Program-made: the position numbers and the translations under genes
Assembly: GCA_017502165.1 (NCBI GenBank)
Contig: JAFVVO010000043.1
Location: 26,409 to 90,408, forward strand
Origin: Clostridia bacterium
Lineage (GTDB): Bacteria > Bacillota > Clostridia > Christensenellales > QALW01
Direction: 5' to 3'
DNA: 64,000 nucleotides
Shown here: positions 21,794 to 54,981 of the stretch, one piece after another
Numbering within the stretch: the stretch's first letter is position 1
Layout of the letters: each line of letters opens with the position of its first letter
The notes under the pieces: generated by a model
Databases searched by the model: none
Seen by the model: only the letters and a program-made list of their open reading frames with translations
What the model was told of the DNA's origin: nothing

Positions 21794-24094
21794 ATGCCAA
21801 AAACCTATGAGAAAAAGAAAAATCAGCGTCCTTACGGTTTGTACACAATAGTAACCGTTTTTTTGTTGTTTGCTGTTTTCTTCCTTATGGTAGGCTCGTT
21901 ATTTGTTTCGGCAGAAAACGATGCCTATGAAGACCTTCACGTGCAAACAAAACAAATTAAGGACGATCTGGTACTCCAGCTTATTTCCGACCGAGAGAAT
22001 CTTTCTACCATGGCAAACTTTGCCTCAAAGCTTTATAAGGACGGGGAAAGCTACGACCTTTTATTTGATTCCTTTAAGCCTATCGGTTTAATTGAAAACG
22101 TAGGTATTTTGACTCCCGAGAACGTTTTTATAACAAAGGCAGGCACCATTGACCTTTCGGACAAGATTTCTTTTGAAGAGGAAAAGGTTCGGGGCGCTTA
22201 CGTTAGCGGAAGAATAAAGGACTTAACCCGTGACAATTACGAAATTGTGCGCAGCGCCGTTCCCATTAAGGCAGACGGTCAGGTTATCGGTGTTCTTTAC
22301 GGCGTTATTAAGCTTGATACAATTGAGCAAAGATATGAACAAATGGCTAACGATATCGACGCTCAGCTTTTTGTTTACAGCAAAGATATCGGTGACCTTA
22401 TTATTGACAACGTGCACACAAAGCTTGGCAATATTTCGTTTTTGCAGGACCGCGAATATGCTCGCGGTTATTCCTACGAGCAAATAATATCGTCCGACAA
22501 AGGCTTTACGTCTTTTAAATCTGCCTACAGGGACGAGCAAGCTCACATGCACTTTTCCACTATTGAGGAATTGGGCTGGGTAATTGCCCTTGCAAGATAC
22601 GATTCCAACGTTTTTGCAACGGTATGGTCTCTTGCTCAAGTTCTGTTTACTGCATTTATTGCATTCCTCGTTGTTGTTGGTTCTTACGTCACCATACTGC
22701 TTACAAGTGAAAAGCACTTAGCTGAGGTAACGGACTGTGCAGCGGACATAAGAAAGCTTCTGCTTGATACCTCAGGCGGTGAAAACGCCATTTCTTTTGC
22801 ACTTAAACAGCTGTGTCAGTTTGCACGAGCCAGATCAACCATGCTTTTTGACGCTAACAGTGAAGAATTTCATTATCTTGCTCCCAAATTCATGGAAAAC
22901 ACCATTCCCGATGAAGAAAGAAATTATTTCCGAGGCGAGTTGCTTCTTTACGGAGCGGAAGTACATCAGACGACTAACTCAGCAGTTAACGTTTTAAGCA
23001 TTACACCTAACAAACACCTTTTGTTAACCAACCCCACGTTCTATGAATTCTTAAGAAAATATAAGATTAACAAGATTACCTGCTCTGCAACTGTTAACGC
23101 CACCAATCACGTTACTATTTTAGCGGCAGTTAACCCCAAACGGTTCCACCTGACGCGGTTGCTTGTTGAAAAAATTGCAGCGTGCTTCTCAATGGCGCTT
23201 TACAATAAGAACTATCTTAACCAGACCAAGCTTACCGCAACAACCGACTCTCTTACGGGAGCATTAAACCGCGTTGCGTACAAAGCCGACCTGTTAACTC
23301 TTGATGGTGAAAATGCTTCGGACTTTTCCTGCATTTACGTTGACGTTAACGAATTACACCTTATTAACAATACTCTTGGCCACGCCGCAGGCGACGAAAT
23401 GCTTATCTACGTTGCCAACACCTTAAAGGAAGTATTCTTCGGCCACAGTATTTACCGAATGGGCGGCGATGAATTCTTAGTGTTCTGCCGAAACGCCGAC
23501 CAAGAAACCGTAAAGAAAAATATCGAGTTTTTCGTTCAACAATTACAGCCGAAAAACTATCACGTGGCTATTGGTTATTCTTTCAGAACAAGAAATACTG
23601 ATACCGAAAGTATGGTAAAGGAAGCCGAGGTTCGTATGTACGAAGCAAAGGCTAAATACTATCAAAACAAAGAACAGCGCAAGACTGACTGGGTAGCTGA
23701 AAGCGAATACGTTCAGGTTAAAACGGGAATCCTTGAAATTGACGCTATGCTTTCGATATTAAAAGAAAGCTATAACGGCATTTACCGCGTTTCACTTAAC
23801 ACCGACAAGGCACACCGTATTTTAATGCCCGCGTATCTTAATTATAACGAAAACGAGGAACATTTTTCAAAGCTTTTCTCCAAATACGTTGCCGACTCCG
23901 TAGAGCCCGACTATCGCAGAGCTTTACTTAGCTTCTTAAATTACGAAGCCATCAAGCAACAGTTGCTTGATGGCAAAATCCCTAAAGCCACCTATAAAAA
24001 GCACAACGGAGAAAGGGTAACCTTAAGCGTTTACACGTTAGATGAAGCAGATGCTTCCGATTTCAACACCCTTTGGGTTTTTGCAAAAATGTGA
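21794..24094 (+). CDS. Membrane sensor diguanylate cyclase (TM - extracytoplasmic Cache-like region - TM - linker domain - GGDEF - C-terminal extension)
   Basis: 766 aa with TM segments near aa 14-38 and 275-300. The GGDEF domain has LTGALNRVAY, DVNELHLINNTLGHAAGDE and an intact GGDEF at 23462-23476. No RxxD I-site lies 5 aa upstream of the motif. Confidence 0.88.
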   Translation: MPKTYEKKKNQRPYGLYTIVTVFLLFAVFFLMVGSLFVSAENDAYEDLHVQTKQIKDDLVLQLISDRENLSTMANFASKLYKDGESYDLLFDSFKPIGLIENVGILTPENVFITKAGTIDLSDKISFEEEKVRGAYVSGRIKDLTRDNYEIVRSAVPIKADGQVIGVLYGVIKLDTIEQRYEQMANDIDAQLFVYSKDIGDLIIDNVHTKLGNISFLQDREYARGYSYEQIISSDKGFTSFKSAYRDEQAHMHFSTIEELGWVIALARYDSNVFATVWSLAQVLFTAFIAFLVVVGSYVTILLTSEKHLAEVTDCAADIRKLLLDTSGGENAISFALKQLCQFARARSTMLFDANSEEFHYLAPKFMENTIPDEERNYFRGELLLYGAEVHQTTNSAVNVLSITPNKHLLLTNPTFYEFLRKYKINKITCSATVNATNHVTILAAVNPKRFHLTRLLVEKIAACFSMALYNKNYLNQTKLTATTDSLTGALNRVAYKADLLTLDGENASDFSCIYVDVNELHLINNTLGHAAGDEMLIYVANTLKEVFFGHSIYRMGGDEFLVFCRNADQETVKKNIEFFVQQLQPKNYHVAIGYSFRTRNTDTESMVKEAEVRMYEAKAKYYQNKEQRKTDWVAESEYVQVKTGILEIDAMLSILKESYNGIYRVSLNTDKAHRILMPAYLNYNENEEHFSKLFSKYVADSVEPDYRRALLSFLNYEAIKQQLLDGKIPKATYKKHNGERVTLSVYTLDEADASDFNTLWVFAKM

Positions 24095-24342: not shown

Positions 24343-25188
24343 GTGACCAGTAATTTTATTGAAATTTTCAAAAATATTGCATCAAACAGCGATGTAGTAA
24401 ATGACGAAAATGCAATTTTCGAAAGAATTGAGGAAGCATTTGCTAACCGCGAATTCAAAACGCATCTTCAGTTTATAGTAAACAACAAAACCAAGGCGGT
24501 CTCTTCTGCGGAGGCTCTTTCCCGATGGGAAATTTCTGCGGACGAGATTGTTTCGCCCGGATTATATCTTCCCTTAATTGAAAAGGCAGGGCTCAGCGCT
24601 AAATTTGACTATTATATGTTTGAAAGCGTTTGCGCCAAGCTTGCCCAATGGAAAAATACCGAGTTTGGCTCGGTAACCGTTTCCTGCAACTTCTCAAGAA
24701 TAACTCTTTCGGAAAACGATTTCATCGAAACTGTTACAGCCATTGCAGATAAATATGATTTTGACAGAAAAAATCTGTTAATTGAAATTACCGAAAGCAC
24801 TATGGAAAGAAACGTTGAGGTTGCTCTGGATAACGTTGTGCGCGCAAAAGAACTCGGTTTCCGCATTGCTTTAGACGACGTTGGCAGCGGTTACACTTCA
24901 CTTATCTGTTTGTGCAAATATCCCGTTGACATTATTAAAATCGACAGAGAAGTGCTTCTATTAGCAAGTGAAACAAGAGGCAAAAAGCTTCTTCTTGGCA
25001 TTATTGCTTTATCACATTTTTTGAATCTCGAGGTTGTATGTGAAGGCGTTGAAACAAGTGAGCAAAACGACCTGGTTTCAAACAGTGATTGCGATTATAT
25101 TCAGGGCTGGTACTATTTTAAGGCGCTTGATGCAAAAAAGGCTGAAGAATGTGCCCGCGAATACGCTGAAAAGCTTGCAAAAAACTAA
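24343..25188 (+). CDS. Stand-alone EAL-domain c-di-GMP phosphodiesterase
   Basis: 281 aa, GTG start after GAGGT. EAL lies at 24511-24519 (AEALSRWE). Also has NFS, EITES, DDVGSGYTS, KIDRE, EGVET and QGWYY, so the full catalytic signature is present. Confidence 0.88.
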   Translation: MTSNFIEIFKNIASNSDVVNDENAIFERIEEAFANREFKTHLQFIVNNKTKAVSSAEALSRWEISADEIVSPGLYLPLIEKAGLSAKFDYYMFESVCAKLAQWKNTEFGSVTVSCNFSRITLSENDFIETVTAIADKYDFDRKNLLIEITESTMERNVEVALDNVVRAKELGFRIALDDVGSGYTSLICLCKYPVDIIKIDREVLLLASETRGKKLLLGIIALSHFLNLEVVCEGVETSEQNDLVSNSDCDYIQGWYYFKALDAKKAEECAREYAEKLAKN

Positions 25189-25770: not shown

Positions 25771-27270
25771 ATGGCAAAAAAAGATAACAGAATTAAATAT
25801 AATCTGTTGTCAGGCTTCGTATATCAAATTGTCCTGATTGTCCTTGGTTTTTTGCTTCCAAGACTGTATCTGGAAAATTTCGGCTCCGAGGTTAATGGTG
25901 TTTTATCTACCATAAAGCAGATTTTCGCATATATGACTCTGCTTGAAGCAGGAGTAGGTCTTGCAACCACCCAGGCGCTCTACAAGCCCGTTGCCGAAAA
26001 AGACCACGCAAAAACAAGCTCCATTATTTCGGCAACAAATAACTACTACGTTAAAATCGGCTTTATTTATTCGGCCATAGTCCTCGCTATCGCCTGTGTA
26101 TATTCCTTCATTATTCCAACGGGTATATCCTCTTGGGTTGTTTTCAGCCTAATAGTTTTAACCGCCTTACCCTCATTATTCAGCTACTTTATACAATTAA
26201 AATACAGAATACTGTTAGAAGTTGACGGCAGAAAGTACGTTATAACCAATTCCGAAACTATTTTGCAGCTTCTTGCCAACGCAGGAAAAATTCTCGTACT
26301 TCTTTTAACTGACAGCCTTATTCTCATTCAGCTTGTATATTGTATCTTATCTCTTATTCAGCTTGCTTACGTTTTCATTCACGCAAAACGCAGATACACT
26401 TGGCTCGATTTTAAGGCTGAGCCTGATTTTGAAGCTATTTCTCAGAGGAAATCCGTTCTTGTGCATCAGATTTCAGGAATGGTTTTCAATAATACCGACA
26501 TTTTATTGCTTTCCTTCTTATGTGATTTTAAGATCGTAAGCGTTTACACCATATACAACATTTTCTTCTCTCAAGTACAAACCTTTATAACTACTATTAC
26601 TTCCGGCTTCAGCTTTGCCTTAGGGCAAATGTTTCACACCGACAGAAAAAAGTTTATGCAGGTTTTTTCGGTTTACGAAACCTTTTACATAATGGGCACC
26701 TTTGTTATATATACTTTAATGGCTGTATTTCTGCTTCCCCTTATTCAGATTTACACAAAGGGAATTAACGACGCAGAATATACAAACGTATTTTTAGTGC
26801 TTCTGTTCGTTATTATGAATCTGTTAGCCAACGGAAAGCTTCCCGTTAACCACGTTATTGAGTTTTCGGGAGCATTTGAGAAAACACGTTGGCACGCCAT
26901 TGCAGAAATGGTGATTAACGTTACCGTTTCAATCGTAGCAATTCTTCTGTGGGGCATTTGCGGCGCAATTCTCGGCACTATCGTCGCCCTTTTATTCAGA
27001 AGCTCTATAATGATTTACTATTCCAACAAAAAAATTCTTCAGCGAAGCATTTTTGAAACGTACAAGCTGTGGATTGTTAACGGAGGCGTGTTTGCCTGCA
27101 TAATGGCTATCTTCTTTGTTGATAGCTTCAGCGGTCTCTCCTTTTTGGAGCTTTTACTGCAAGGAATTATTCACACCGCGTGGATTATCCCTTTGTATCT
27201 TGTGGCAAATCTTATTTTCTTTAGAAGTGCCTTTAAGAATTTCCTTGTTCTTTGGAGGGCGAGAAAATGA
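25771..27270 (+). CDS. wzx: Polysaccharide flippase (Wzx / MOP superfamily)
   Basis: 499 aa with roughly 12-14 TM helices, located in a glycan locus. Confidence 0.75.
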   Translation: MAKKDNRIKYNLLSGFVYQIVLIVLGFLLPRLYLENFGSEVNGVLSTIKQIFAYMTLLEAGVGLATTQALYKPVAEKDHAKTSSIISATNNYYVKIGFIYSAIVLAIACVYSFIIPTGISSWVVFSLIVLTALPSLFSYFIQLKYRILLEVDGRKYVITNSETILQLLANAGKILVLLLTDSLILIQLVYCILSLIQLAYVFIHAKRRYTWLDFKAEPDFEAISQRKSVLVHQISGMVFNNTDILLLSFLCDFKIVSVYTIYNIFFSQVQTFITTITSGFSFALGQMFHTDRKKFMQVFSVYETFYIMGTFVIYTLMAVFLLPLIQIYTKGINDAEYTNVFLVLLFVIMNLLANGKLPVNHVIEFSGAFEKTRWHAIAEMVINVTVSIVAILLWGICGAILGTIVALLFRSSIMIYYSNKKILQRSIFETYKLWIVNGGVFACIMAIFFVDSFSGLSFLELLLQGIIHTAWIIPLYLVANLIFFRSAFKNFLVLWRARK

Positions 27271-30423: not shown

Positions 30424-31104
30424 ATGCCCTATATTGACAGTGAAAAGGTTGATGAGAAGACTCGGGCAAAATTAGCTGCATTGATTGAAAAATCCTATTC
30501 GTCATATTGGATGAAAAAAAGACTTTTCGACATTTTCTTTGCGACGATTATTCTGCTTATGTTTTTGCCCTTAATGATTATAATTGCCATTGTAATCTGT
30601 ATTGACGATCCAAGCGCAGGTCCATTCTTTAAGCAAAAACGAGTAGGCCGCCACGGGAAAGAATTTTATATGTATAAATTCCGCACAATGCGTCCCAACG
30701 CAGAAGCGCTTCTTGAAGAGTTAAAAGACAAAAACGAAATGGACGGCCCCGTATTCAAAATTACCGACGATCCAAGAATAACCAGGGTAGGTAAATTTTT
30801 GCGCAAGCTTTCTTTGGACGAACTTATGCAGTTCTTCAATGTTTTTAAGGGCGATATGACCTTGGTTGGTCCCCGTCCGCCGCTGCCAAGAGAAGTAGAA
30901 TTTTACACAGATTATCAAAAGCTCCGCCTGCACGTTACTCCCGGGTTAACTTGCACCTGGCAGATTTCAAAAAACAGAAACGACATACCCTTTGAACAGT
31001 GGGTTGAAATGGATTTGGATTACATACAAAACCGCACCTTCCCGGGTGACATTTTAATTATGCTCAAAACGCCTATCGTTATGATAAGCGCAACGGGCAG
31101 ATAA
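30424..31104 (+). CDS. Polyprenyl-phosphate sugar-1-phosphate transferase (initiating bacterial sugar transferase, WbaP/EpsL type)
   Basis: KRLFDIFFA, PFFKQKRVGRHGKEFYMYKFRTM, DELMQFFNVFKGDMTLVGPRP. Confidence 0.9.
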   Translation: MPYIDSEKVDEKTRAKLAALIEKSYSSYWMKKRLFDIFFATIILLMFLPLMIIIAIVICIDDPSAGPFFKQKRVGRHGKEFYMYKFRTMRPNAEALLEELKDKNEMDGPVFKITDDPRITRVGKFLRKLSLDELMQFFNVFKGDMTLVGPRPPLPREVEFYTDYQKLRLHVTPGLTCTWQISKNRNDIPFEQWVEMDLDYIQNRTFPGDILIMLKTPIVMISATGR

Positions 31105-32275: not shown

Positions 32276-33247
32276 ATGAAACAAGAAAAGCTTACTACAA
32301 AGCCCAGAAAACGAGCCCGTGCAATATTTCTGTTTATAATCAGCTTGCTTTCTGTATTGGTTGCCTTTACTATTGCGGTAGTTGGCTGCAACTACGTTGA
32401 AAATCAAAATTTTAAGGAAACCTTTTACTGTGTGAGCAGTCTTAAGGTTCACAACAAAATAAGAATAGTTCAGCTTTCCGATCTGCACTCGTCCTATTAC
32501 GGTGCTGAAAACGCGAAGTTGCTGGACAGAGTTACTAAATTAAACCCTGATATAATTCTGTTAACGGGTGATTGCATTGATTCCGATTCCGTTGACGATG
32601 CAGGTACCGTAACTCTGTGCGCCAAGTTTACGGATATTGCCCCTACCTATTATATTTACGGCAACAACGAAGTGGAAAAATATTATTACGGCGCTCTTAC
32701 TCAGGAAACTTTAGATAAAAAGTTTGGCTTTACTGACGAAACCCGTCAACCCTCCAAGCTTCTTGATATGACGGATGCCTTGGCTGAAAAGTTAAAAAAG
32801 GCAGGGGTAAAGGTTCTCAAAAATTCCTTTGATACCATTACCATCGGAACCACCAACGTTGATATTTACGGTGTGCTTACTTCGAACCCCTCGGCTTTTT
32901 GGTCCTATGCGGGAGACAGCTTCGACGAGTTTATTTATTCTAACGAAAACAACCTTAAGATTACCGCTATTCACGAGCCTACCGTTTTTGAAGAGTATGC
33001 GCCTGATTCATGGGGCGACTTGATGCTCGCAGGTCACACCCACGGCGGTCACGCTCGACTTCCCATTGTCGGCCCCGTTTACACTCACGAAGACGGTATG
33101 CTGCCTGCAAAAACAGGCCATTACGTTTACGGCCGATACGACGTGCAGGGAAGACCTCTTATTATTTCTTCCGGTCTGGAAAACAAGAGCTTCTTCAGAA
33201 TTAACAATCCTCCCGAAATTGTGGTTGTAGACGTAAATAAATTTTAA
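32276..33247 (+). CDS. Membrane-anchored calcineurin-like metallophosphoesterase
   Basis: N-terminal TM segment, then QLSDLHS, LLTGD, GNNE and GHTHGG motifs. Confidence 0.8.
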   Translation: MKQEKLTTKPRKRARAIFLFIISLLSVLVAFTIAVVGCNYVENQNFKETFYCVSSLKVHNKIRIVQLSDLHSSYYGAENAKLLDRVTKLNPDIILLTGDCIDSDSVDDAGTVTLCAKFTDIAPTYYIYGNNEVEKYYYGALTQETLDKKFGFTDETRQPSKLLDMTDALAEKLKKAGVKVLKNSFDTITIGTTNVDIYGVLTSNPSAFWSYAGDSFDEFIYSNENNLKITAIHEPTVFEEYAPDSWGDLMLAGHTHGGHARLPIVGPVYTHEDGMLPAKTGHYVYGRYDVQGRPLIISSGLENKSFFRINNPPEIVVVDVNKF

Positions 33248-33267: not shown

Positions 33268-34626
33268 ATGTATTCAGCAATTTTGCAGAAAATACCCGTT
33301 ATAATAGCAGGTTTAATTCTGTTGCTCGCGCTTTTGAGAATATATTTCCGCTCAAAAAACGTTACTAAAAGCGAGTTTGTTAAAATACTAAAAAGCACTA
33401 AATATCTGCAGGCAGGCGTGCTTATTTTCGTATTTATTATTACCGCCTTGTTCGGTGTATTTAATCATTTTAAGGCAAAGCAATCCGTTAGCGCAATAGT
33501 TGCTCTTAACTATTCCGAGGCTTCGCAGGCACAAAACTCCAACGGCACAAGATATAATATGACTGAAATCGTCTGTGATGAGGTTGTTGATCGAGCCATC
33601 GAAATGGGTGCTTTTGAAAACGTTACAACAAAACAGCTTAAGGAATGTCTTTCCGTTTACCCCCACGTGCAGGGTGACGTGAACGATGAGGCCAATTACC
33701 ATATTTCTACAGAATTTGTTGTAGAATATCACGCTTCAAAACATACTCAGCACTTAAATTCCGAAAACGTAATAATGCTGATTACAAGCGCTTACAAGGA
33801 ATACTACATAGAAAAATATACGGACAATTTCAACCTTACTGAGCAGGAAGAAAAGCCGGACTTTTCAACTATGGAGTATATGGATATAGTTTCCTACTTT
33901 AACAAGGAAACCACATCAGTGCTTAACTATCTGTACGGAATGGCAGAAAAGGGTCCAAGCTTCGTTACTTCAAATGATTCAACCTTCCATTCAATCGCAG
34001 GAAAGGTTTATCAGTTTAAGTCAACCCAGATTGAGCAAAACCTGCAGTCGCTGATTTTACAGTACGGAATTGTGCGTGATAAATCCAATTATATTGACAG
34101 ACTTTCTTACCAAAACAAAAATACCGACTTTGATAAGCAGAAAAACACCGCGTCATTTAACCTTTGCAATCAGGCAATAGATTTGTATTCCGAAGAAATG
34201 ACGAGAATAGTTTTAGTGCCCACTTGGGACGAAAACGGAAAGTTCTATATGGGCAGAACTCAGGTTGGTATTGACGAATTATCCGTAATGGCAACGTCAT
34301 TTAGTGAAAACGTTGCGGCAAACAACAAAGAAATTATGGATAACAAGCTTATTATTGAAAAAATGCAAAAGGCAAGCGGAAGCACTGCCGCCCGAGAAGA
34401 AGCCGATGCACTGATTGCTTCAATTGACAAAAGCATAGATAACTTTACTGCCGAAGCAATAAAAGCGGGCAGAGAATATTCAAACTACACGATGAATCAA
34501 TGTATTGCCGTAAGTATTTCAGGAACGTCACTCCTGAGCGAATTAAAAACCGTTGTTATCTTTGCTTGTTTAGCTTATGTTGCGGCAATTTCCCGTTCAG
34601 TTTCAAAAAAATTCCCCAAACCATAA
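33268..34626 (+). CDS. Hypothetical membrane protein with PCP-like topology (N-terminal TMs, ~330-aa external domain, C-terminal TM)
   Basis: TM segments are present at both ends. No recognised catalytic motifs. It sits next to the PCP-GGDEF fusion. Confidence 0.5.
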   Translation: MYSAILQKIPVIIAGLILLLALLRIYFRSKNVTKSEFVKILKSTKYLQAGVLIFVFIITALFGVFNHFKAKQSVSAIVALNYSEASQAQNSNGTRYNMTEIVCDEVVDRAIEMGAFENVTTKQLKECLSVYPHVQGDVNDEANYHISTEFVVEYHASKHTQHLNSENVIMLITSAYKEYYIEKYTDNFNLTEQEEKPDFSTMEYMDIVSYFNKETTSVLNYLYGMAEKGPSFVTSNDSTFHSIAGKVYQFKSTQIEQNLQSLILQYGIVRDKSNYIDRLSYQNKNTDFDKQKNTASFNLCNQAIDLYSEEMTRIVLVPTWDENGKFYMGRTQVGIDELSVMATSFSENVAANNKEIMDNKLIIEKMQKASGSTAAREEADALIASIDKSIDNFTAEAIKAGREYSNYTMNQCIAVSISGTSLLSELKTVVIFACLAYVAAISRSVSKKFPKP

Positions 34627-34647: not shown

Positions 34648-36531
34648 ATGAAAAATTTCAAAATTATGCGATATTTGAAAAAGCTTTTGCCAATCATTGT
34701 GATTTTATGCGTTGTTGCTACCTACGGAATATACGTTAAGCTGAACGATTCCAACACCTACGTAGCTTCCGAGGTTATTCATTACAATGACCCGGCCGCC
34801 GAGCAGGGCTTAACGCCCACCGGCTCGAAATTAGACGTTAATGAAATTAAATCTTCCGCTATTTTGTCAAAGGTTGTTGACAGAATGGGCCTTACGGGCA
34901 TTTACTCAGTTGACAGTCTTATTTCAAGAATTTCCATTACTCCTTTACCCGACGAGGATAAGCTTGCGCAAAAGGAAGCCAAGCTTGAAGAGGGTGAGGA
35001 ATACGTTTACGAGCCCAGCACTTACATTGTTTCATTTACCGCCACAAACGACGAGGGCTCCGTTTTTGCAAGAACTATTCTTGACGAAACTCTTGACGTG
35101 TATTTTGCCGAATACAGTCAGAAATACGTTAACGTAGCTCCTGCTAAAAACATTATAGACAACACCGAAAGTGCAAATTACGACTATATTGAAATGGTTG
35201 AGCTTATTGACGTTGGTATTGACGAAACCTTAACCACCTTATATCAGCGTATGGACCAGAATCCATACTACCGCTCAACTAAAACGGGCGCTTCCTTCAG
35301 TGATTTGGCGGACGATTTTAATTACCTTCGTTCCGTTAAGCTTTCATCAATGTTCTCCAAGATTTATAAATACCAAATCACAAAAAACAAGACTCTTCTT
35401 GTTTCAGACTATAAAACAAGAATTGATAATAACGTTATATTAAACGCCAAAGAAGAAAGCATCGTTAAAGACACCGTTGCCGTTATTGACGCTTACGTTG
35501 AAAAAATGAGAGAGTCAGGCAACACGAACATTACTTACGAATATATTCTTGATAATCTTCACGACGGCAATTTAGTTGACGGTAACGGCAATCCTCTTTT
35601 CGCCGGTGACCAGACCGTAACCTATGACGAGCTTATTTTCAGCTGGAGAGACCACAAGGAAACAAAAGAGTATTCCGTTATTGATTCAGCATACTGCAAT
35701 TATCTTATTAACACCTTTACCGCCTGCACAGGCGCTTGCGATCCTGAGCACAGAGAATGTGCTACTTCAAACAAGACCTGCACGGAAATTCATAACGAAA
35801 ACTACCAGCAGTTAAAGACCGAGCTTGACGAAGAAATCAACACTCTTATATCAGATTTAACCGAGCTTTACAACTTAACTATGAGCACCAACGAAGAATA
35901 CAACCAATATCTTGGCGCAAGCTACATTTCAGTTTTGTCCTCAGCTTCTGTTAAGCCCAGTATTAACGTTATTCTTTACACTCTTATTGCGTTCTTCTTC
36001 CTTATTGTTCTCTGCTGCGGCGGCGCAATAGTTTTAGCAAGAGTGGCTGATATTGTAAACTACGTTTTCTATACCGACCATCTTACAAATCTTTATAACC
36101 GTGCTTACTTTGATAAGTATCTTAAATCAATGGACAAAAAGCTTCTTGACGACGGAACGGTTTACTGCATAATTGAAATTTCAAACCTTGCCGCAATTAA
36201 CGCTGAATTCTCCCGTCAGGTTGGTGACGAGGTAATTAAAACCTTTACCTCATACTTAAAAGAAGCCTTTGGTAAAACTAACGCGGAATATATTTATAAC
36301 GGCAACGGCAGCTTCGTTGTTCTGGCACAAGATGCCGACTATATTACCGCTGAAGACATTTTAAGACTTTTCCGTATCAGACTTGATGAGCGTGACGTTT
36401 TCGAAGATTTCGCCATTGAATACAAGATTGGTATTGCCGAAAGCTTTAAGGAAAATAAAACTGCAAGAAAACTGCTTTCCGAAGCAATTAAGAGCAAAAA
36501 GGACTTCGTAGCCGAAATTATTGAAAAATAA
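34648..36531 (+). CDS. Wzz/PCP-like polysaccharide co-polymerase fused to a C-terminal degenerate GGDEF domain
   Basis: TM1 (LLPIIVILCVVATYGIYV), a Wzz-like start (TYVASEVIHYNDP), a coiled-coil segment and TM2 (INVILYTLIAFFFLIVLCCGGAIVLA). Then DHLTNLYNRAYF...IEISNLAAINAEFSRQVGDE...GNGSF (36301-36315), where GG[DE]EF would be expected. Confidence 0.7.
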   Translation: MKNFKIMRYLKKLLPIIVILCVVATYGIYVKLNDSNTYVASEVIHYNDPAAEQGLTPTGSKLDVNEIKSSAILSKVVDRMGLTGIYSVDSLISRISITPLPDEDKLAQKEAKLEEGEEYVYEPSTYIVSFTATNDEGSVFARTILDETLDVYFAEYSQKYVNVAPAKNIIDNTESANYDYIEMVELIDVGIDETLTTLYQRMDQNPYYRSTKTGASFSDLADDFNYLRSVKLSSMFSKIYKYQITKNKTLLVSDYKTRIDNNVILNAKEESIVKDTVAVIDAYVEKMRESGNTNITYEYILDNLHDGNLVDGNGNPLFAGDQTVTYDELIFSWRDHKETKEYSVIDSAYCNYLINTFTACTGACDPEHRECATSNKTCTEIHNENYQQLKTELDEEINTLISDLTELYNLTMSTNEEYNQYLGASYISVLSSASVKPSINVILYTLIAFFFLIVLCCGGAIVLARVADIVNYVFYTDHLTNLYNRAYFDKYLKSMDKKLLDDGTVYCIIEISNLAAINAEFSRQVGDEVIKTFTSYLKEAFGKTNAEYIYNGNGSFVVLAQDADYITAEDILRLFRIRLDERDVFEDFAIEYKIGIAESFKENKTARKLLSEAIKSKKDFVAEIIEK

Positions 36532-36561: not shown

Positions 36562-37872
36562 ATGAAAATGGAAAACAAACTGGCTAAGGTTGCGTTGAAG
36601 GGCTATTTTATCGCCGTAGCAACGCTGATGTACTATTTTCTTACAGAAACCATTAACCTTGGCATTTTCGTTACTTTCCGCCACGCATTTGCTCTCGTTC
36701 TGTTTTTCTCCGCGCTTTTATTCTTTTTGATTAAACCAAACATTGCCCGCGGCGCTTCCACGGTTTCAGGAACCTTTGTTTACTGTATTCCATTGCTCGT
36801 TACCCTTGCGGTATCCCTTTTTATTTGGTTTGCCACCCAAGTTGACACTTCCGTTATTGCCCGCGGACTCTCAGGCTTATTTGTTTACAACAATATGCTT
36901 TCCTTTACTCTTGCCGCCGTTTCATTTTTATATATCTTCGGCGAAAAGGGTATCTGGTATAACCTTATTGCAATTCTTATTTCAAACATACTGATAATTT
37001 GTACCGTTATTTTACAAAACGGCGTAGGCGCCTTCTTCTCGGAGTTTATAACCTTAATTATTACCTTCGCAGGAGAAACGGGTGACGTTATCGTGCAGGC
37101 GGAAATCCACGAGCTTGCATTCTGTCTTGGCGCTTACCTTATTTATATGTTCTTAAAGCCAAAGAAAAACGCCGCGTTTTTTATTTTGCTTGGACTTACC
37201 TTGTTCTGCTTCCTTGCCGCCTTTAAGCGAATTGGTATTATTGCTATCGTAGTTGCTCTGGCAATAGGCTGGTTCTTACAGTTTATTGCCAAGTTTAAAG
37301 CAAGCACTGCTAAAAATCTTGCGGTTATTTTGTCCGTTTGCCTTGTGTTTATACTTATAGGCTACGTTGCAATAATTAAGCTTGACGTTTTTACCCTGCT
37401 TGAAAAGGCAGGCATTAACACAAGCGGACGTGTGGAAATTTATAACGCGGTTGATAAGTTTTATGAGTTTTCTCCCGAATTTTTAGGTAACGGCATAGGC
37501 TTTTTAACCTATCAGCTGAGCACCAATATGAACGTGGGCGTTTCATCTGTTCACAACGACTTTTTACAGTATTTTATCGACCTTGGATTCTGGGGATATA
37601 TTTTATGGCTGGCTTCTATGACAATCGTTCGCGTTTGCTATTTCGGTAAAAATGGCAAAACGGAAAGCGCAATTATCACCCTGGCATTAACCGTTTATCT
37701 GCTGATAGTTTCTTCTACAGACAACACCTTAAATTATCCGTTGCTTACTACGGTGCTTGCAAGCATAATGATTGGTCACGGGTTTGACGAAACCGTGCGG
37801 GAAAAAGAATTGAGAATCTTTGGTTGTATTTCTGATGAAAATAAAGAAACGAAGGATAATTCGATATTATGA
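36562..37872 (+). CDS. wzy: O-antigen/EPS polymerase (Wzy / O-antigen ligase family)
   Basis: About 11 TM helices. It has the Wzy_C-like motif SSVHNDFLQYFIDLGFWG. Confidence 0.75.
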   Translation: MKMENKLAKVALKGYFIAVATLMYYFLTETINLGIFVTFRHAFALVLFFSALLFFLIKPNIARGASTVSGTFVYCIPLLVTLAVSLFIWFATQVDTSVIARGLSGLFVYNNMLSFTLAAVSFLYIFGEKGIWYNLIAILISNILIICTVILQNGVGAFFSEFITLIITFAGETGDVIVQAEIHELAFCLGAYLIYMFLKPKKNAAFFILLGLTLFCFLAAFKRIGIIAIVVALAIGWFLQFIAKFKASTAKNLAVILSVCLVFILIGYVAIIKLDVFTLLEKAGINTSGRVEIYNAVDKFYEFSPEFLGNGIGFLTYQLSTNMNVGVSSVHNDFLQYFIDLGFWGYILWLASMTIVRVCYFGKNGKTESAIITLALTVYLLIVSSTDNTLNYPLLTTVLASIMIGHGFDETVREKELRIFGCISDENKETKDNSIL

Positions 37873-42260: not shown

Positions 42261-43622
42261 ATGCACATATTTGAAAACCCACTCGTAATAATAGGAATTT
42301 TAGCTTTTTGCTTTCTTGCGCTGGTTTCAGTTGCCATTTATTTTGCCGTTAAAGGCGTAAAAACCGCAAGCGGCCACGCAGAAAACGACTTTTCAACAAT
42401 AAACAAGCTTGAAAACGAATTCAGAAAATTAGGTAAGCACCGTGCAGACAGATGGGTGATGTACGTTAGCGTTTCATCTGCTACACCGCCAAGTGATTAT
42501 GCTGAGCCAAACGTTTTTTCCGAAATCAAACGCTCTCTGCTTTCTATGTTTGCAAACGAATACGATTATATTGCAATTTATGATGATAACAGCTACGTTG
42601 TACTTGCAAACCGTGAAAAAGCAGAAATAGAAGAAACAATAGAAATCTGTCAGGCAGAATTAAATAAATGTCTTTTAAGCTATAGCGCTCTTAACGTGGT
42701 AAACGTAAGAATAGGCTCCCATTGTGCCGACGGCTCTCACGTTACCTTTGACGAAGCAATTTCCCGTGCAAAACAAGCTTGTTTGCTTGCAAAAAATAAA
42801 AATGTTTTCTATTCTCAGTGGGATATTACCAGCGGAAAGGCCTTGGAAAAAAAGATTAAAATTGAAAACAATATTGAAAAAGAAATTGATAACAACCGTT
42901 TCTTTTTAGAATATCAGCCGGTTTTAGATGCCAAAACCAAGAAGATTATAGGCGCTGAGGTTTTATCCCGCTTAAATTCCGAAAGTGACGGAGTTTTAAC
43001 CCCCGGCAGCTTCTTATCCGCGTTAGAATCCGTAGGCATTAACGAAAAATTCGACTATTATATTTTTGAAAAGAACTGTAAGTGGATTTCCAACGACAAA
43101 CCTCAGCGGGAAGGCTACAAATATACCATAAACTTTTCCCGTTCTACTTTGAGTGAGCCTGAATTTGTAAACAAAATTATAAACATTGCCGAAAAATACG
43201 ATTTGAAATTTTCCTGCCTTGCGGTTGAAGTGCTTGAAGATAAAAACGTTACCGGCGAAGCAAAAAAACAAATGATTGATAACCTTTCTGCGCTTAAAGA
43301 AAAAGGTGTTTCCATTTTGCTTGACGATTTTGGCAGCGGTTACACAACCTTTGGAGATTTACAAAGCTTTGACGTTTCTATAGTAAAAATTGACAAATCC
43401 ATAACCCAGAACGCCGTTACCGAAACCGGCTTTATCATACTTAAAAATATTATTCAGACTGCCCACGATATAGGCTTTAAGACGGTTTGCGAGGGTGTTG
43501 AAAACAAGGAGCATGAGGAAGCTGCAATAAAAGCAGAATGTGATATGCTTCAAGGCTTCTACTATTACAAGCCTATGCCCGTTACAATGCTTGAAAAACT
43601 GTTTAACAATAATAAAAATTAG
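42261..43622 (+). CDS. Membrane-anchored degenerate-GGDEF / EAL (EVL) c-di-GMP phosphodiesterase
   Basis: One N-terminal TM segment. The GGDEF-like region has YDDNSY in place of GGDEF. The EAL domain has EVL (42957-42965), INFS, EVLED, DDFGSGYTT, KIDKS, EGVEN and QGFYY. Confidence 0.8.
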   Translation: MHIFENPLVIIGILAFCFLALVSVAIYFAVKGVKTASGHAENDFSTINKLENEFRKLGKHRADRWVMYVSVSSATPPSDYAEPNVFSEIKRSLLSMFANEYDYIAIYDDNSYVVLANREKAEIEETIEICQAELNKCLLSYSALNVVNVRIGSHCADGSHVTFDEAISRAKQACLLAKNKNVFYSQWDITSGKALEKKIKIENNIEKEIDNNRFFLEYQPVLDAKTKKIIGAEVLSRLNSESDGVLTPGSFLSALESVGINEKFDYYIFEKNCKWISNDKPQREGYKYTINFSRSTLSEPEFVNKIINIAEKYDLKFSCLAVEVLEDKNVTGEAKKQMIDNLSALKEKGVSILLDDFGSGYTTFGDLQSFDVSIVKIDKSITQNAVTETGFIILKNIIQTAHDIGFKTVCEGVENKEHEEAAIKAECDMLQGFYYYKPMPVTMLEKLFNNNKN

Positions 43623-45798: not shown

Positions 45799-47829
45799 AT
45801 GACAGAACAAGAAATTCTCCAAGGGGAGCTTAAACGCCTGCAGGAAGAAAACGAGGCTCTTGCCAACCAGCTTACCGCGGCAAAAAAGGATGCTCTTGCA
45901 CGCAAAATTTCATACGATTCACTTAAGGAGGTTTACCGTGAGCTTTCTGCCAAGTATTCAAAGGTAGATCACGAGTACACATATCTGATCAATTCAACAT
46001 TTTGGAAAACCACAAAGCCCCTTCGTGCTTTAATGAATCTTTGTAAGCGCAACAAGTTTATTTATTATTCACTTAAGGCTGTTAAGGTGCTTTTTACCCG
46101 TGGACCAATCGTTGTTGTTCAGCTTACTAAAAAGAAAATGCGTACCAAATCCGTTGGCGGTAAATTTTCCATTTCCGCTAAACGCAGAAAAGCCGAGGAG
46201 GCTGCAACCTTTACTTCTGACGTTAAATTCAGCGTTTTGGTACCCCTTTATAACACTCCAATTAAATTTTTGCGCCAGATGATTGAATCTGTACAGAAGC
46301 AAACCTATAAAAACTGGGAGCTTTGCCTTGCCGACGGCAGTGACGCAGACCATTCTGACGTGGAAGCGGTAGTAAAGGAGCTTCAAAAGGCTGACGAAAG
46401 AATTAAATACGTTAAGCTTGAGAAAAACCTTGGTATTTCCCTTAACACCAACGCTTGTATCGATATTTCTTCGGGCAATTACATTGCTCTTTTTGACCAC
46501 GACGACCTTCTTCATCCATCTGCACTTTTTAAGGTAGCAAAGAGAATTGAAGAAACAGGTGCAGACTTTATTTATACCGATGAGGCTACCTTTACGGGAA
46601 ACAATCCCCGCAACGTTGTAACGGCTCACTTTAAGGCGGATTTTGCTCCCGACACTCTCCGTTCATATAACTACATTTGCCACCTTTCCGTTTTCAGCCG
46701 CGAGCTGATGAATAAGGTGGGCGTTTTCCGTGCAGAGTGTGACGGAAGTCAGGATTACGATATGATTCTCCGCTTAACCGAGCAGGCAACGAAAATCGAG
46801 CATATTCCCGAGCTTTTATATTATTGGCGCGGCCACAAAAATTCCACCGCCCAGGATATCGGCTCAAAGCCCTATATTATTGCGGCGGCGCACCGCGCTC
46901 TTTCTGACCACTTAAAGCGCATCGGTCTTCGCGGCAGCGTTCTTGACGGCACTCTTCCTTCAACATACAGAATGAGCTATGAGCTTAAGGACGAGCCTCT
47001 TATTTCAATCATTATTGCAAATAAGGATAACGTGGACAGCCTTGACAAGTGTCTGCGCTCCATTTACGAAAAATCCTCTTATCAGAATTTTGAGGTTATT
47101 ATCGTTGAAAACAATTCCGAAAGAAAGGAAACCTTCGAATATTACAAGCTTATTCAGGAAGAATATCCCTCCTGCAAGGTTATAAAATGGACAGAAGGCT
47201 TCAACTATTCGGCAATTAACAATTTTGGATGTCAGCACGCAAAAGGCGAATACTTTATGCTGCTTAATAATGACGTTGAGATTATTTCGCCCCAATGGCT
47301 TGAAGAAATGCTTATGTTTGCCCAGCGCTCCGACGTGGGCGCAGTAGGCGCTATGCTTTATTATCCCGACGACACTATTCAGCACGCAGGTGTTATTTTA
47401 GGTATCGGCGGCGTTGCAGGCCACGGCCACAAGCACACCCCCAGAGGCGGCTTCGGATATATGTCCCGCGCCACTATTGCCCAGAACTATACTGCAGTTA
47501 CCTTTGCCTGCGTTTTAATTCCCAAATCGGTTTACAATCAGGTTGGCGGACTTGACGTAGGCTATCAGGTAGCCTTTAACGACGTTGATATGTGTATGCG
47601 TATCCGTGAAGCAGGTTATCTTATCGTGTTCACCCCCTACGCAGAGCTTTATCATTACGAATCAAAGAGCCGCGGCTCAGAGGACACTCCCGAAAAGGTG
47701 CTCCGTTTTCAGTCCGAGGTTTATCGCTTTCAAGAACGCTGGGGTAAGGAGCTTGAAGCAGGTGACCCCTACTACAACCCCAATTTAACCTTGGCGTACG
47801 AGGATTTCTCCGTTAAAATGGAAAAATAA
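45799..47829 (+). CDS. Coiled-coil + tandem GT2-domain glycosyltransferase (polymerising type)
   Basis: N-terminal coiled coil (LKRLQEENEALANQL). Two GT2 modules are present (FSVLVPLYNTP...FDHDD and ISIIIANKD...LNNDVE). Confidence 0.82.
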   Translation: MTEQEILQGELKRLQEENEALANQLTAAKKDALARKISYDSLKEVYRELSAKYSKVDHEYTYLINSTFWKTTKPLRALMNLCKRNKFIYYSLKAVKVLFTRGPIVVVQLTKKKMRTKSVGGKFSISAKRRKAEEAATFTSDVKFSVLVPLYNTPIKFLRQMIESVQKQTYKNWELCLADGSDADHSDVEAVVKELQKADERIKYVKLEKNLGISLNTNACIDISSGNYIALFDHDDLLHPSALFKVAKRIEETGADFIYTDEATFTGNNPRNVVTAHFKADFAPDTLRSYNYICHLSVFSRELMNKVGVFRAECDGSQDYDMILRLTEQATKIEHIPELLYYWRGHKNSTAQDIGSKPYIIAAAHRALSDHLKRIGLRGSVLDGTLPSTYRMSYELKDEPLISIIIANKDNVDSLDKCLRSIYEKSSYQNFEVIIVENNSERKETFEYYKLIQEEYPSCKVIKWTEGFNYSAINNFGCQHAKGEYFMLLNNDVEIISPQWLEEMLMFAQRSDVGAVGAMLYYPDDTIQHAGVILGIGGVAGHGHKHTPRGGFGYMSRATIAQNYTAVTFACVLIPKSVYNQVGGLDVGYQVAFNDVDMCMRIREAGYLIVFTPYAELYHYESKSRGSEDTPEKVLRFQSEVYRFQERWGKELEAGDPYYNPNLTLAYEDFSVKMEK

Positions 47830-47875
47830 CCGCAAAAAAATGTCCTTTATAAAAAAGGACGAATCGAGGAAATTT

Positions 47876-48679
47876 ATGAACATAAAACATAAGGGCTTAA
47901 ATAGATTTTTTGCCGATATGAAAACGTTTTTTCCCCTTTTGATGAATTTAGCGGGAAAGGACTTTAAGCTTAAATACCGCCGTTCATTTTTGGGCGTGCT
48001 TTGGAGTATTCTTAACCCCTTATTCACAATGCTTGTAATTACGCAGGTTTTCGGCATTCTGCTTAAGGTAAAGGTAGAAAATTTTGCAACCTATTACATT
48101 GTGGGCTGGTCCCTTTGGAACTTCTTTTCCGAATCAACCTCAATGTCAATGAGCTCCGTTATCTACGGCGCACCGTTAATTAAGAAGGTTTACCTGCCAA
48201 AGTACATTTTCCCATTGGAAAAGTGTCTGTTTGCGCTTATTAACCTGATGCTCAGCCTTATAGCAGTTCTTGCAGTTATGCTTATTCAGGGAGTTTTCCC
48301 TTCCTGGTCAGCACTTTTGTTCCCGATTCCCGTTATTTACTGCTTTATTTTCTGCGTGGGATTTTCACTTATTTTAAGCGCTTTAACGGTTTTCTTCCGC
48401 GATATTATGCACCTTTACAGCGTGCTTTTAACGGTTTGGATGTACTTAACTCCCCTTATTTATCCCTTCAGCTTAGTTGAAAATACACCCTTTATTTCGG
48501 ACATCGTCCGCTATAATCCTATGACGCTTTTTATCGAGTATTTCCGCTCGGTTGTTATGTACGGCACCGTTCCGAGCCTTGAAACCAATCTTTTGTGCCT
48601 CGTCATTTCACTTTTAACCTTTGCTTTGGGCGCATTGATTTTTTCAAAAGCACAAAAACGCTTTATTCTTCATATTTGA
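47876..48679 (+). CDS. wzm: ABC-2 type polysaccharide export permease
   Basis: KDFKLKYRRSFLGVLWSILNPL signature and 6 TM helices. ATG 47876 follows GAGGA. The alternative ORF-track start at 47840 has a poor RBS. Confidence 0.85.
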   Translation: MNIKHKGLNRFFADMKTFFPLLMNLAGKDFKLKYRRSFLGVLWSILNPLFTMLVITQVFGILLKVKVENFATYYIVGWSLWNFFSESTSMSMSSVIYGAPLIKKVYLPKYIFPLEKCLFALINLMLSLIAVLAVMLIQGVFPSWSALLFPIPVIYCFIFCVGFSLILSALTVFFRDIMHLYSVLLTVWMYLTPLIYPFSLVENTPFISDIVRYNPMTLFIEYFRSVVMYGTVPSLETNLLCLVISLLTFALGALIFSKAQKRFILHI

Positions 48680-48688
48680 GGTGATTGA

Positions 48689-49429
48689 ATGAACAGCGAA
48701 AACGCAGTAGAATTAAAAAATATAGAGATGCACTTTAATATGAGCAAGGAAAAGCTGGAAAGCCTTAAGGAATATTTCCTGCGCCTTGTTACACGCAAGC
48801 TGATGTTTGAAGACTTCGTTGCCCTTGACAACGTTTCCTTTGACATAAAAAAGGGTGACGTTTTCGGTATCGTTGGTCTTAACGGCTGCGGCAAAAGTAC
48901 AACTCTTAAAATAATTTCAGGTATTTTGACTCCCACCAAGGGCACTGTTGAAACTCAAGGCACAATTGCGCCCTTAATTGAGCTTGGCGCAGGCTTTGAC
49001 TTTGACCTTACCGCAAGAGAAAATATCTACTTAAACGGCTCTGTTTTAGGATATTCAAAGAAATTTATGGATTCCAAGTTCGACGATATCGTTGAATTTT
49101 CCGAAATGCACGATTTCCTTGATACTCCTATGAAAAATTATTCTTCAGGTATGATTGCCCGAATCGGTTTTGCAATCGCCACCGTTACCCAGCCTGAAAT
49201 TTTAATTGTTGACGAAATTCTGGCAGTTGGTGACTTCCGCTTCCAAGAAAAATGCGAGGCTCGAATTAACCAGATGATTACGGGGGATACCACCGTTATT
49301 ATAGTTTCCCACTCCATTGAGCAGATTGAACGCCTTTGCAACCGTTGCGTATGGCTTGAAAAGGGCAAGGTAAAGATGCTGGGAGATGCTAAAGAAGTTT
49401 GTGAGGCTTACAGAAATGCGTACAGATAA
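48689..49429 (+). CDS. wzt: Polysaccharide export ABC transporter ATP-binding protein (no C-terminal carbohydrate-binding domain)
   Basis: Walker A GLNGCGKST, signature YSSGM, Walker B ILIVDE. Confidence 0.9.
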   Translation: MNSENAVELKNIEMHFNMSKEKLESLKEYFLRLVTRKLMFEDFVALDNVSFDIKKGDVFGIVGLNGCGKSTTLKIISGILTPTKGTVETQGTIAPLIELGAGFDFDLTARENIYLNGSVLGYSKKFMDSKFDDIVEFSEMHDFLDTPMKNYSSGMIARIGFAIATVTQPEILIVDEILAVGDFRFQEKCEARINQMITGDTTVIIVSHSIEQIERLCNRCVWLEKGKVKMLGDAKEVCEAYRNAYR

Positions 49430-50141
49430 GGTGCTTTTAATTATTCCCGCATATAACGAAGAGGAAAATATAATATCCACCTGCAACAAAATCAGAAGCT
49501 ATAACGAAAATTTCGGCACAAACTATGATTTTGTGGTTATTAACGACGGCTCAAAGGATTCAACAAGCGCTCTCTGCCACGAAAATAACGTTAAAATCAT
49601 TGATTTGGTTGAAAACCTCGGTATAGGCGGCGCGGTGCAGACGGGCTATAAATACGCCCTTGAAAACGGTTATGACGTGGCTATTCAGTTTGACGGCGAC
49701 GGTCAACACGACGTTTCATACGTTAAAAAGCTTCTTGAGCCTATAAAAAATGACGAGGCGGATTTCGTTATAGGCTCACGCTTCGTTAAGGACTCCGAAA
49801 GCGCTTTTAAGTCTTCATTTATGCGCAGAGTGGGTATAAATATTATTTCATTTGCCGTTAAAATCGTATCTGGTAAGAAAATTTTTGATACCACCTCAGG
49901 CTTCAGAGCCGCTTCAAGAAAGATTATAGAGCTTTTTGCTAAATCATATCCTACGGAATATCCCGAACCCATTACCAATGCTGAAATTCTCTGCCTTGGC
50001 TACAAGGTTAAGGAGGTAGGCGTTTCCATGGAGGAGCGCGTTGGCGGTGTTTCTTCTATCCGCGCCTGGAAATCCGTTTACTATATGATTAACGTAATTC
50101 TTTCTATTTTAATTTGTTCTTCAAAGAGGAAAAGAAAATGA
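49416..50141 (+). CDS. GT2 polyprenyl-phosphate glycosyltransferase (GacI/DPM1-like)
   Basis: LLIIPAYNEEENI, INDGSKDST and FDGDGQHD. ATG 49416 lies 9 nt after GAGG and overlaps the wzt end. Confidence 0.82.
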   Translation: MRTDKVLLIIPAYNEEENIISTCNKIRSYNENFGTNYDFVVINDGSKDSTSALCHENNVKIIDLVENLGIGGAVQTGYKYALENGYDVAIQFDGDGQHDVSYVKKLLEPIKNDEADFVIGSRFVKDSESAFKSSFMRRVGINIISFAVKIVSGKKIFDTTSGFRAASRKIIELFAKSYPTEYPEPITNAEILCLGYKVKEVGVSMEERVGGVSSIRAWKSVYYMINVILSILICSSKRKRK

Positions 50142-53504: not shown

Positions 53505-53653
53505 AAAAAACCTCTTTTAGTTTAACTTATACCGTTAATAGACACATTTAATAGCCGTATTCATTATAACATAAATATTTTAATAAAACAATAGCGAGCT
53601 TTTTTATTCGTTGTTTTTTATTCATTATTTTTAATAAAATATGTATAAAACTA

Positions 53654-53682
53654 TTGCATTTTAAGGCAAAAAAAGGTATAAT
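53654..53682 (+). promoter_or_regulatory. Sigma-A promoter upstream of dnaN
   Basis: TTGCAT (53654-53659), 17-nt spacer, TATAAT (53677-53682). Confidence 0.6.
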
Positions 53683-53715
53683 ATAATTGATAAATTTTGT
53701 GCTTTGGTTTATTTA

Positions 53716-53860: not shown

Positions 53861-53882
53861 TTAGAAAACGAGGTTTTGTGAA

Positions 53883-54980: not shown

Positions 54981-54981
54981 T

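Follow-up and report, generated by a model that had tools for sequence, protein, structure and literature searches.

Within a 64-kb stretch of a Clostridia bacterium genome (contig JAFVVO010000043.1 of assembly GCA_017502165.1; this whole stretch is referred to below as the window), the open reading frame (ORF) at positions 34648-36531 encodes a 627-aa protein in which a large membrane module resembling the polysaccharide co-polymerases (PCPs) of Wzx/Wzy-type pathways runs directly into a cytoplasmic domain of GGDEF fold. Fold, topology and context place the protein in the PCP superfamily as a divergent representative, remote at the sequence level and not a Pfam-defined Wzz, and its tail is, judged from its residues, a GGDEF-fold domain unable to make cyclic di-GMP (c-di-GMP). 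The best explanation of this combination, which we favor tentatively, is that of a PCP working from a locus free of bacterial tyrosine kinase (BY-kinase) genes, with a tail that senses the c-di-GMP state of the cell. The features of the gene on which this argument draws are the following (TM, transmembrane segment; MAG, metagenome-assembled genome; pLDDT, predicted local distance difference test score):

34648..36531, plus strand: PCP-like/degenerate-GGDEF fusion gene, 627 aa (ORF, Pfam GGDEF, AlphaFold2 model, exact protein in Clostridia MAGs)
34672..34749, plus strand: TM1, aa ~9-34 (hydropathy; model helix 14-34)
34750..35967, plus strand: extracytoplasmic PCP-like domain, aa ~35-440 (AlphaFold2 models, Foldseek, weak Pfam Wzz matches in relatives)
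35695..35781, plus strand: clade-specific Cys-rich insert, aa 350-378, at the tip of a helical hairpin (low pLDDT)
35968..36060, plus strand: TM2, aa ~441-471 (hydropathy, AlphaFold2 model)
36061..36492, plus strand: cytoplasmic degenerate GGDEF-fold domain, aa ~472-615 (Pfam, NCBIfam TIGR00254, sequence and fold matches in the PDB, dN/dS)
36295..36315, plus strand: signature loop Y550-N-G-N-G-S-F556, standing for R-x-GG[DE]EF (alignments)

The ORF starts with an ATG preceded by the Shine-Dalgarno-like sequence AGGAAGGTGA and is separated by 21 nt from the upstream gene and by 30 nt from the downstream gene. Within the protein, DHLTNLYNRAYF occupies aa 477-488, EISN aa 510-513, SRQVGD aa 522-527 and GNGSF aa 552-556 (nt 36301-36315), and the helical stretch NYQQLK...LYNL spans aa 385-410; every motif quoted in the original prediction, which was made from the sequence of the window, was found where that prediction had placed it. 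The PCP topology proposed there, i.e., TM1, an external region of ~420 aa, TM2 and a cytoplasmic tail, agrees with hydropathy, which puts the membrane segments at aa ~9-34 and ~434-471, and with the AlphaFold2 model that had been suggested as a check. This model of the full-length protein is confident (mean pLDDT 88.9) and comprises two membrane helices (aa 14-34 and 441-475) and a GGDEF-fold tail. The N-terminus is rich in Lys and Arg, which argues for a cytoplasmic location (N-in). The external region of ~400 aa combines an alpha/beta base with very long helices (aa 248-289, 325-358 and 383-426), and TM2 forms one unbroken helix to aa 475 that leads straight into the GGDEF-like tail. The Cys-rich insert carries cysteines at positions 350, 360, 364, 371 and 378, of which Cys360, Cys364, Cys371 and Cys378 are invariant in 120/120 close homologs and gapped across the wider family; lying external to the cell of an anaerobe, the insert may form a disulfide knot or a metal site.

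A Foldseek search with the full-length model is dominated by GGDEF matches, and a separate tail-less model of aa 1-470 (pLDDT 85.7) was therefore used to place the N-terminal module. With this model, the 19 best matches in the PDB are all Wzc, WzzE or KpsE (E 4e-6 to 5e-2, probability up to 1.00). In sequence comparisons, a HMMER single-sequence search of the PDB with the N-terminal 470 aa gave no match, and a profile built from 39 sequences of the module retrieved from the PDB only coiled-coil noise (PI3K p85, keratin), so sequence alone cannot place the module. The relatives described below provide weak, sub-threshold matches to Pfam Wzz PF02706 (20/77 tailed and 17/39 tail-less relatives); the scores seen among them reach at most 23.7 bits, with the best E value (1e-6) among tail-less members, against a gathering score of 25.5 bits. 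Additionally, of the classical Pro/Gly-rich PCP motif overlapping TM2, PX2PX4SPKX11GXMXG, the glycine-rich TM2 half is kept family-wide as G456-C-x-G-A-x-x-L-G-R465; the full pattern is not found in the protein, and its proline half is not conserved (P437 in 7/77 relatives).

The tail is recognized by Pfam GGDEF PF00990 (aa 475-613, 48.6 bits, E 1e-12, cut-off 23.8 bits) and, above its cut-off, by NCBIfam TIGR00254. In line with these matches, Foldseek superimposes it on many GGDEF structures with a target-normalized TM-score of ~0.7 and a root-mean-square deviation of 2.5-3.5 Å, and it is ~24% identical to the GGDEF domains of DgcR and PleD. Its residues were read from alignments to DgcR structures and from column statistics over 77 diverged relatives, with an approximate PleD numbering that serves as a guide only. 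In place of GG[DE]EF, the protein has G-N-G-S-F and the family Y-N-G-[SG]-G-Q-F; the first metal-binding Asp (PleD D327 equivalent) is E510 in the protein and R, Q, N or E, without conservation, in the family; the phosphate-binding Lys (K442 equivalent) is I614 and hydrophobic in the family; the His of the GH..GD motif is R523, a conserved Arg in the family; and the R446 equivalent is also lost. No family member examined carries the acids of GG[DE]EF. These results uphold the catalytically dead GGDEF tail of the original prediction, and the names "diguanylate cyclase" and "GGDEF domain-containing protein" given by NCBI to members such as P0001, P0072, P0114 and P0278 are thus misannotations. 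An active cyclase with an unusual motif was also considered and rejected, since the whole family lacks the two catalytic acids, the Asp that binds metal and the Lys that binds phosphate.

Loss of catalysis is accompanied by strong conservation. Across the 77 diverged representatives, D477, N484, R485, D489, N518, R523, G526 and D527 are conserved, as are Y550, N551, G552, G554, Q555, F556, R607 and L609, and the N-terminal D-x-x-T-x-L-x-N-R helix is kept family-wide. N518 and D527 correspond to the Asn and Asp with which cyclases contact guanine, and they persist among ~30%-identical relatives. The conserved positions sit on the active-site face, where Arg523 and R607-x-L609 are family-specific, and key tail positions are invariant in the 120 close homologs. 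Against 13 orthologs, the nonsynonymous divergence (dN) of the tail equals that of the PCP part (e.g., 0.13 versus 0.11, and 0.20 versus 0.18-0.21); synonymous sites are saturated, and wherever the ratio of nonsynonymous to synonymous divergence (dN/dS) can be estimated for the tail, it is below 0.1. The tail is under purifying selection. A decaying tail is ruled out by this ratio and by the conserved motifs.

The family to which the protein belongs was defined by an exhaustive phmmer search with aa 1-470 and comprises at least 663 representatives at 50% clustering. A survey of databases for PCP-GGDEF fusions, another check named in the original prediction, is thereby answered: many tailed relatives occur in a large family of gut Clostridia proteins. 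An identical protein and orthologs of 65-83% identity are carried by MAGs of Clostridia, Acutalibacteraceae and Oscillospiraceae, several of them from ruminant guts, and one carrier, Pseudoflavonifractor phocaeensis (WP_204882202.1), is in culture. Pfam GGDEF is found in 68/77 long members, a count taken with Pfam because plain phmmer with the tail of the protein missed many family tails. About one third of the "main-type" members have no tail (e.g., that of locus L027), and in relatives P0250 and P0251 (locus L029, 4960-7179) a full EAL domain (200 bits) follows directly after TM2, replacing the GGDEF-like tail within the same context of paralog, Metallophos, Wzy and Wzx genes. Such a pattern of swapped and missing tails is that expected of an accessory regulatory module drawn from the c-di-GMP toolbox.

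Neighborhoods were compared in ~9 distinct family loci (±10 kb, Pfam-annotated, 30-80% identity), including eight more distant members at 30-50%; a single-protein scan for related loci gave mostly close relatives. Where the contig is long enough, the sampled loci share a recurring core of tail-less paralog, PCP, Metallophos gene and Wzy-like gene, with Wzx (including Polysacc_synt flippases), Bac_transf, glycosyltransferases and often a pyruvyl transferase nearby. In all loci examined, the tail-less paralog immediately precedes the main PCP, a placement that points to a co-polymerase built as a hetero-oligomer. The Metallophos gene adjoins this PCP pair in every family locus, and its fusion to PCP-GGDEF in relative P0195 is an argument for joint action of these proteins. 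Neither a BY-kinase nor a PHP phosphatase gene was found in the sampled loci. In the 65-83% identical orthologs the whole cluster is syntenic, with the membrane-anchored EAL gene in place in 10/10 loci that are long enough.

In the window, the gene is part of a long polysaccharide cluster, all on the plus strand. Its 5' part contains genes for a 766-aa GGDEF protein, a stand-alone EAL protein, an acetyltransferase and a 499-aa multi-TM protein; two side-chain transferases (including GtrII), YdjC, Bac_transf, GT4, Metallophos and a 452-aa two-TM protein follow in the middle; and the 3' part consists of the PCP-like gene, Wzy_C, GT4, three GT2, a membrane-anchored EAL protein, GT2 and an acyltransferase. 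The genes that bear on the argument are listed below:

21794..24094, plus strand: membrane sensor diguanylate cyclase (GGDEF766) at the head of the cluster, RMGGDEF and GH..GD intact
24343..25188, plus strand: stand-alone EAL phosphodiesterase (EAL281), catalytic motifs intact
25771..27270, plus strand: multi-TM protein, 499 aa, ~12 TM segments (no Pfam or NCBIfam match)
30424..31104, plus strand: priming phosphoglycosyl transferase, Bac_transf (Pfam)
32276..33247, plus strand: membrane-anchored Metallophos metallophosphoesterase, 323 aa, YaeI/LpxG-like (domain matches)
33268..34626, plus strand: tail-less PCP-like paralog, 452 aa, two TM segments (comparison with the PCP-like protein, family profile)
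36562..37872, plus strand: Wzy-like polymerase, Wzy_C, directly downstream of the PCP-like gene (Pfam)
42261..43622, plus strand: membrane-anchored EAL phosphodiesterase (EAL453) among glycosyltransferase genes, catalytic motifs intact

The paralog has 20% identity to the PCP module of its neighbor, scores 254 bits against the family profile and ends ~10 aa past TM2. The Metallophos protein has a single N-terminal TM segment after a start rich in Lys and Arg, which probably places its catalytic domain outside the cell; it might act in the release or processing of polymer linked to undecaprenyl pyrophosphate, or stand in for the missing phosphatase. Homologs of the 499-aa protein in other loci are membrane proteins of ~510 aa, one of them weakly flagged by Pfam as Polysacc_synt, and on this homology the protein is a probable Wzx flippase, divergent enough to escape current models. 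GGDEF766 has no RxxD motif, and its Cache match is weak and below the cut-off. As for the two EAL enzymes and the cyclase (DGC), their intact motifs suggest that all three are apparently active. GGDEF766 additionally bears a C-terminal extension of ~130 aa (aa ~640-766) without family assignment, and EAL453 has an N-terminal TM segment and an unassigned domain of ~170 aa. The N-terminal half of EAL453 was considered as a related degenerate GGDEF domain, which would have suggested a heterodimer partner, and rejected at the level of sequence: BLASTP returned only a 13-residue patch shared with the signature loop (E 0.96) and Pfam returned nothing.

No gene for a BY-kinase or a PHP phosphatase was found in the window, where the scanned ORFs match glycosyltransferase, membrane or housekeeping families or none (in one scan of the remaining window ORFs, among the top 25 families listed) and Walker-A motifs occur only in RecF, ABC ATPases and a dehydrogenase. 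Nor did the locus give a match to a low-molecular-weight protein tyrosine phosphatase, the Metallophos protein being its sole phosphoesterase. The kinase- and PHP-free locus of the original prediction is therefore confirmed at the scale of the window.

These observations can be joined in the following model. The protein would act as a divergent PCP of a Wzx/Wzy-type exopolysaccharide (EPS) pathway whose locus has no BY-kinase, together with the upstream tail-less paralog as a presumed hetero-oligomer, the adjoining Wzy-like polymerase and the membrane-anchored metallophosphoesterase. The tail would be a regulatory input for the cellular c-di-GMP state: c-di-GMP itself, or a related guanine nucleotide, would bind at the remodeled active-site face, or else the tail would dock the cyclase or phosphodiesterases of the cluster, and its signal would pass via TM2 to the external helical domain that governs Wzy-dependent polymerization. 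The results above show the architecture and fold, the loss of catalytic and I-site residues, the purifying selection, the conserved neighborhood and the swapped domains; we infer the hetero-oligomer, the identity of the ligand, the direction of regulation and the effect on chain length. A link to c-di-GMP is made plausible by the cluster itself, which has a DGC and two EAL genes and in which no PilZ, MshEN or I-site receptor was seen among the proteins; by the relatives that swap the tail for an EAL domain; and by the pocket-like face, on which the guanine-contacting Asn and Asp and two new arginines are kept by selection. The rigid helix from TM2 into the domain is the geometry of signaling cyclases, which makes c-di-GMP signaling plausible too.

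Several results weigh against this explanation. On the side of the PCP assignment, Pfam Wzz PF02706 does not match the protein at E<=1, so the assignment rests on the fold and on the weak matches in relatives; the Wzz identity given by the original prediction thus stands for fold and topology but not for the Pfam match that it had proposed as a check. The global TM-scores of the N-terminal module against PCP structures are also low (0.2-0.28), which makes the fold match a local one based on the 3Di alphabet of Foldseek; low global scores can occur with long helical hairpins. On the side of the tail, the active site has lost the positions that bind metal and phosphate, so canonical binding of GTP or of the product is unlikely. 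Every characterized degenerate-GGDEF receptor of EPS systems (PelD, PssE, YdaK) relies on an RxxD I-site. Specifically, in PssE of Listeria the RxxD precedes the degenerate motif by five residues and c-di-GMP is bound with a dissociation constant of 0.79 µM (PMC4125290), the R202A and D205A substitutions in YdaK of B. subtilis abolish EPS production (PMC5422440), and binding by PelD of B. cereus is lost on mutating R363, D366 or R395 (PMC7112168). The equivalent positions of the protein studied here read GKTN/KTNA. None of the 120 close homologs has the Arg, Asp is present at position 545 in 44/120 and K543 is invariant, and in the 77 distant representatives these columns are mostly gapped or unconserved. 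Nor is the secondary I-site Arg (PleD R390/PelD R402 equivalent, by the approximate PleD numbering) conserved: its position is R576 in the protein, G or S in 97/120 close homologs and R in 14/77 family members. The family therefore fails the defining test of the PelD/PssE/YdaK receptor class, and any binding of c-di-GMP by the tail must use a non-canonical site. Finally, outside the clade of the protein no DGC or phosphodiesterase (PDE) gene lies within 10 kb (loci L022, L023, L025, L028 and L030). The earlier interpretation is accordingly retained for the PCP-like fold, the dead GGDEF tail and the locus free of kinase and phosphatase, but its analogy with PelD and PssE is given up, since the RxxD I-site that these receptors use is absent from the whole family.

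The alternative that survives best, though in itself rather unlikely, is that the tail is a ligand-free structural module, i.e., a dimerization or ring platform, or a dock for glycosyltransferases or the priming enzyme, which would take the scaffolding part of the Wzc kinase ring with no signal as input. GGDEF domains are prone to dimerize, and the degenerate GGDEF proteins CsrD and GdpS act without c-di-GMP. In agreement with such a role, all canonical nucleotide-binding determinants but two are gone (I-site, metal and phosphate ligands), the tail is retained in clades without c-di-GMP enzymes in the locus, and many "main-type" family members work without any tail. However, the retention of the N518/D527 equivalents with the family-specific Arg523 and Arg607 on the same face resembles a ligand pocket, the EAL domain that some members carry instead of the tail is hard to account for by a pure scaffold, and the clade of the protein shows close linkage to genes for DGCs and PDEs.

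An improbable alternative is that the tail senses another guanine nucleotide (GTP, pGpG, (p)ppGpp or a GDP-sugar precursor) at the remodeled half-site, which would tie polymerization to the metabolic or precursor state of the cell. Degenerate GGDEF domains can bind GTP allosterically, as in Caulobacter PdeA/CC3396, and the conserved N518 and D527 form the guanine-specificity pair of cyclases; PleD also binds (p)ppGpp according to the titles of PDB entries 9g85 and 9g86. The missing triphosphate and Mg ligands argue against GTP in the canonical pose, however, and the sampled loci give no specific pointer to ppGpp or GDP-sugars.

Least probable of those considered is an ordinary PCP-2b served by a BY-kinase and a phosphatase whose genes lie at other genomic sites, with the tail as a minor accessory: although unlinked BY-kinases are possible in principle and our inspection covered 64 kb of one contig, neither gene occurs in the sampled family loci, the tail is constrained as strongly as the PCP part, and, whereas CapA/CpsC-type PCPs activate their kinase via a cytoplasmic juxtamembrane peptide, here the GGDEF domain abuts TM2 and the paralog stops ~10 aa after it, so that, going by CapA/CapB, neither would offer such a peptide. 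The remaining probability falls to something outside these explanations.

The tail as a sensor of the c-di-GMP state thus remains the reading that we prefer, and it can be set against the systems already described. Wzc of E. coli (PCP-2a; PDB 7nhr, 9r62 and 9r68) is the best fold match of the N-terminal module (E 4e-6, probability 1.00), and it likewise has two TM segments on either side of a large helical domain outside the membrane, a globular regulatory domain fused directly after TM2 in the cytoplasm, and a partnership with Wzy-dependent polymerization. The wording "in place of a BY-kinase partner" in the original prediction is fair in architectural terms, as the Wzc kinase occupies the same position after TM2. 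However, this position holds a P-loop BY-kinase with a Tyr cluster in Wzc and a GGDEF fold here; no sequence similarity is detectable by HMMER against the PDB; the host is of Gram-positive type, hence no Wza partner is expected; and in the sampled loci a tail-less paralog and a metallophosphoesterase neighbor the gene.

The CpsC/CpsD-type PCP-2b systems (CapA/CapB, YwqC/YwqD) are alike in being two-TM co-polymerases of Firmicute Wzx/Wzy capsule or EPS loci, but they differ in their separate BY-kinase and PHP (CpsB) phosphatase, not found in the sampled loci of the family, whose Pfam Wzz scores are sub-threshold; the external domain of ~400 aa is presumably also much larger than that of CpsC-type proteins. 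With PelD, PssE and YdaK, the protein shares a dead GGDEF domain on a membrane protein inside an EPS operon, with DGCs and PDEs in the genome or locus. The membrane parts of these receptors are not PCP-like, and they bind c-di-GMP through RxxD (plus a second Arg in PelD), unlike the present family; furthermore, the systems that they regulate are treated in the cited literature as synthase-type EPS systems (Pel, Pss; PMC7112168), not as Wzy/PCP machines. PelD of streptococci has lost its GGDEF domain. Finally, the diguanylate cyclases PleD, WspR and DgcR have the same fold, the N-terminal D-x-L-T-x-L-x-N-R helix and the Asn/Asp guanine contacts, but the family differs in its G-[NSG]-G-[SQ]-F loop, in the Arg for the His of GH, and in having neither an I-site nor equivalents of the metal-binding Asp, K442 and R446.

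Directly downstream of the cluster, the window contains a second glycan system on the plus strand, and two glycan pathways, one Wzy-type and one of the adjoining ABC type, thus appear combined in one region:

45799-50141, plus strand: double-GT2 protein (676 aa), ABC-2 permease and ATPase (Wzm/Wzt-like), and GT2

The remaining genes of the window have housekeeping functions (ribosomal protein operon, SecY, Adk, dnaN-recF, gltX). The dnaN-recF genes begin at 53883 without dnaA upstream, where the opposite strand carries a glycogen synthase gene (window ~53500-56061). The cumulative GC skew has its minimum at ~42-54 kb and rises thereafter, and the ribosomal protein operon occupies 1-17 kb on the minus strand. 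Near 53.5-53.9 kb there may be an origin of replication.

PCPs with a cytoplasmic regulatory domain and degenerate GGDEF domains that control EPS are both known already. We found no description in the literature of a PCP/Wzz fused to GGDEF or of a c-di-GMP-responsive Wzx/Wzy co-polymerase; what is new is the combination of PCP and GGDEF, the paralog and metallophosphoesterase partners, the lack of BY-kinase in the sampled loci, and a conserved GGDEF face without I-site. Taken jointly, these features could define a new class of Wzx/Wzy co-polymerases of gut Clostridia, in which a paired PCP, with one tail-less subunit and one bearing the GGDEF-fold tail, and an extracellular metallophosphoesterase would replace the cycle of BY-kinase and phosphatase and the tail would bind c-di-GMP via a non-I-site (N518, R523, D527, Y-N-G-x-G-Q-F and R607), a joint reading that is doubtful as a whole. 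A more immediate consequence concerns annotation: the "diguanylate cyclase" database names of these proteins are wrong and inflate the cyclase counts of the genomes that carry them.

The well-characterized post-translational controls of EPS by c-di-GMP have synthase-type systems as their targets (cellulose, alginate, Pel, PNAG and Pss), and for the Wzx/Wzy pathways, the source of most capsules and heteropolysaccharides, the generally assumed control is tyrosine phosphorylation of PCP-2 proteins. If the tail is a signaling input, it would represent a kinase-free regulation of the polymerase/co-polymerase step and a new nucleotide- or partner-binding mode for degenerate GGDEF domains; if the reading of c-di-GMP at a non-I-site is true, it would constitute a direct post-translational c-di-GMP switch on Wzy/PCP polymerization. 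The family is found in abundant and poorly studied Clostridia of gut and rumen, whose surface glycans shape their interactions with hosts and phages.

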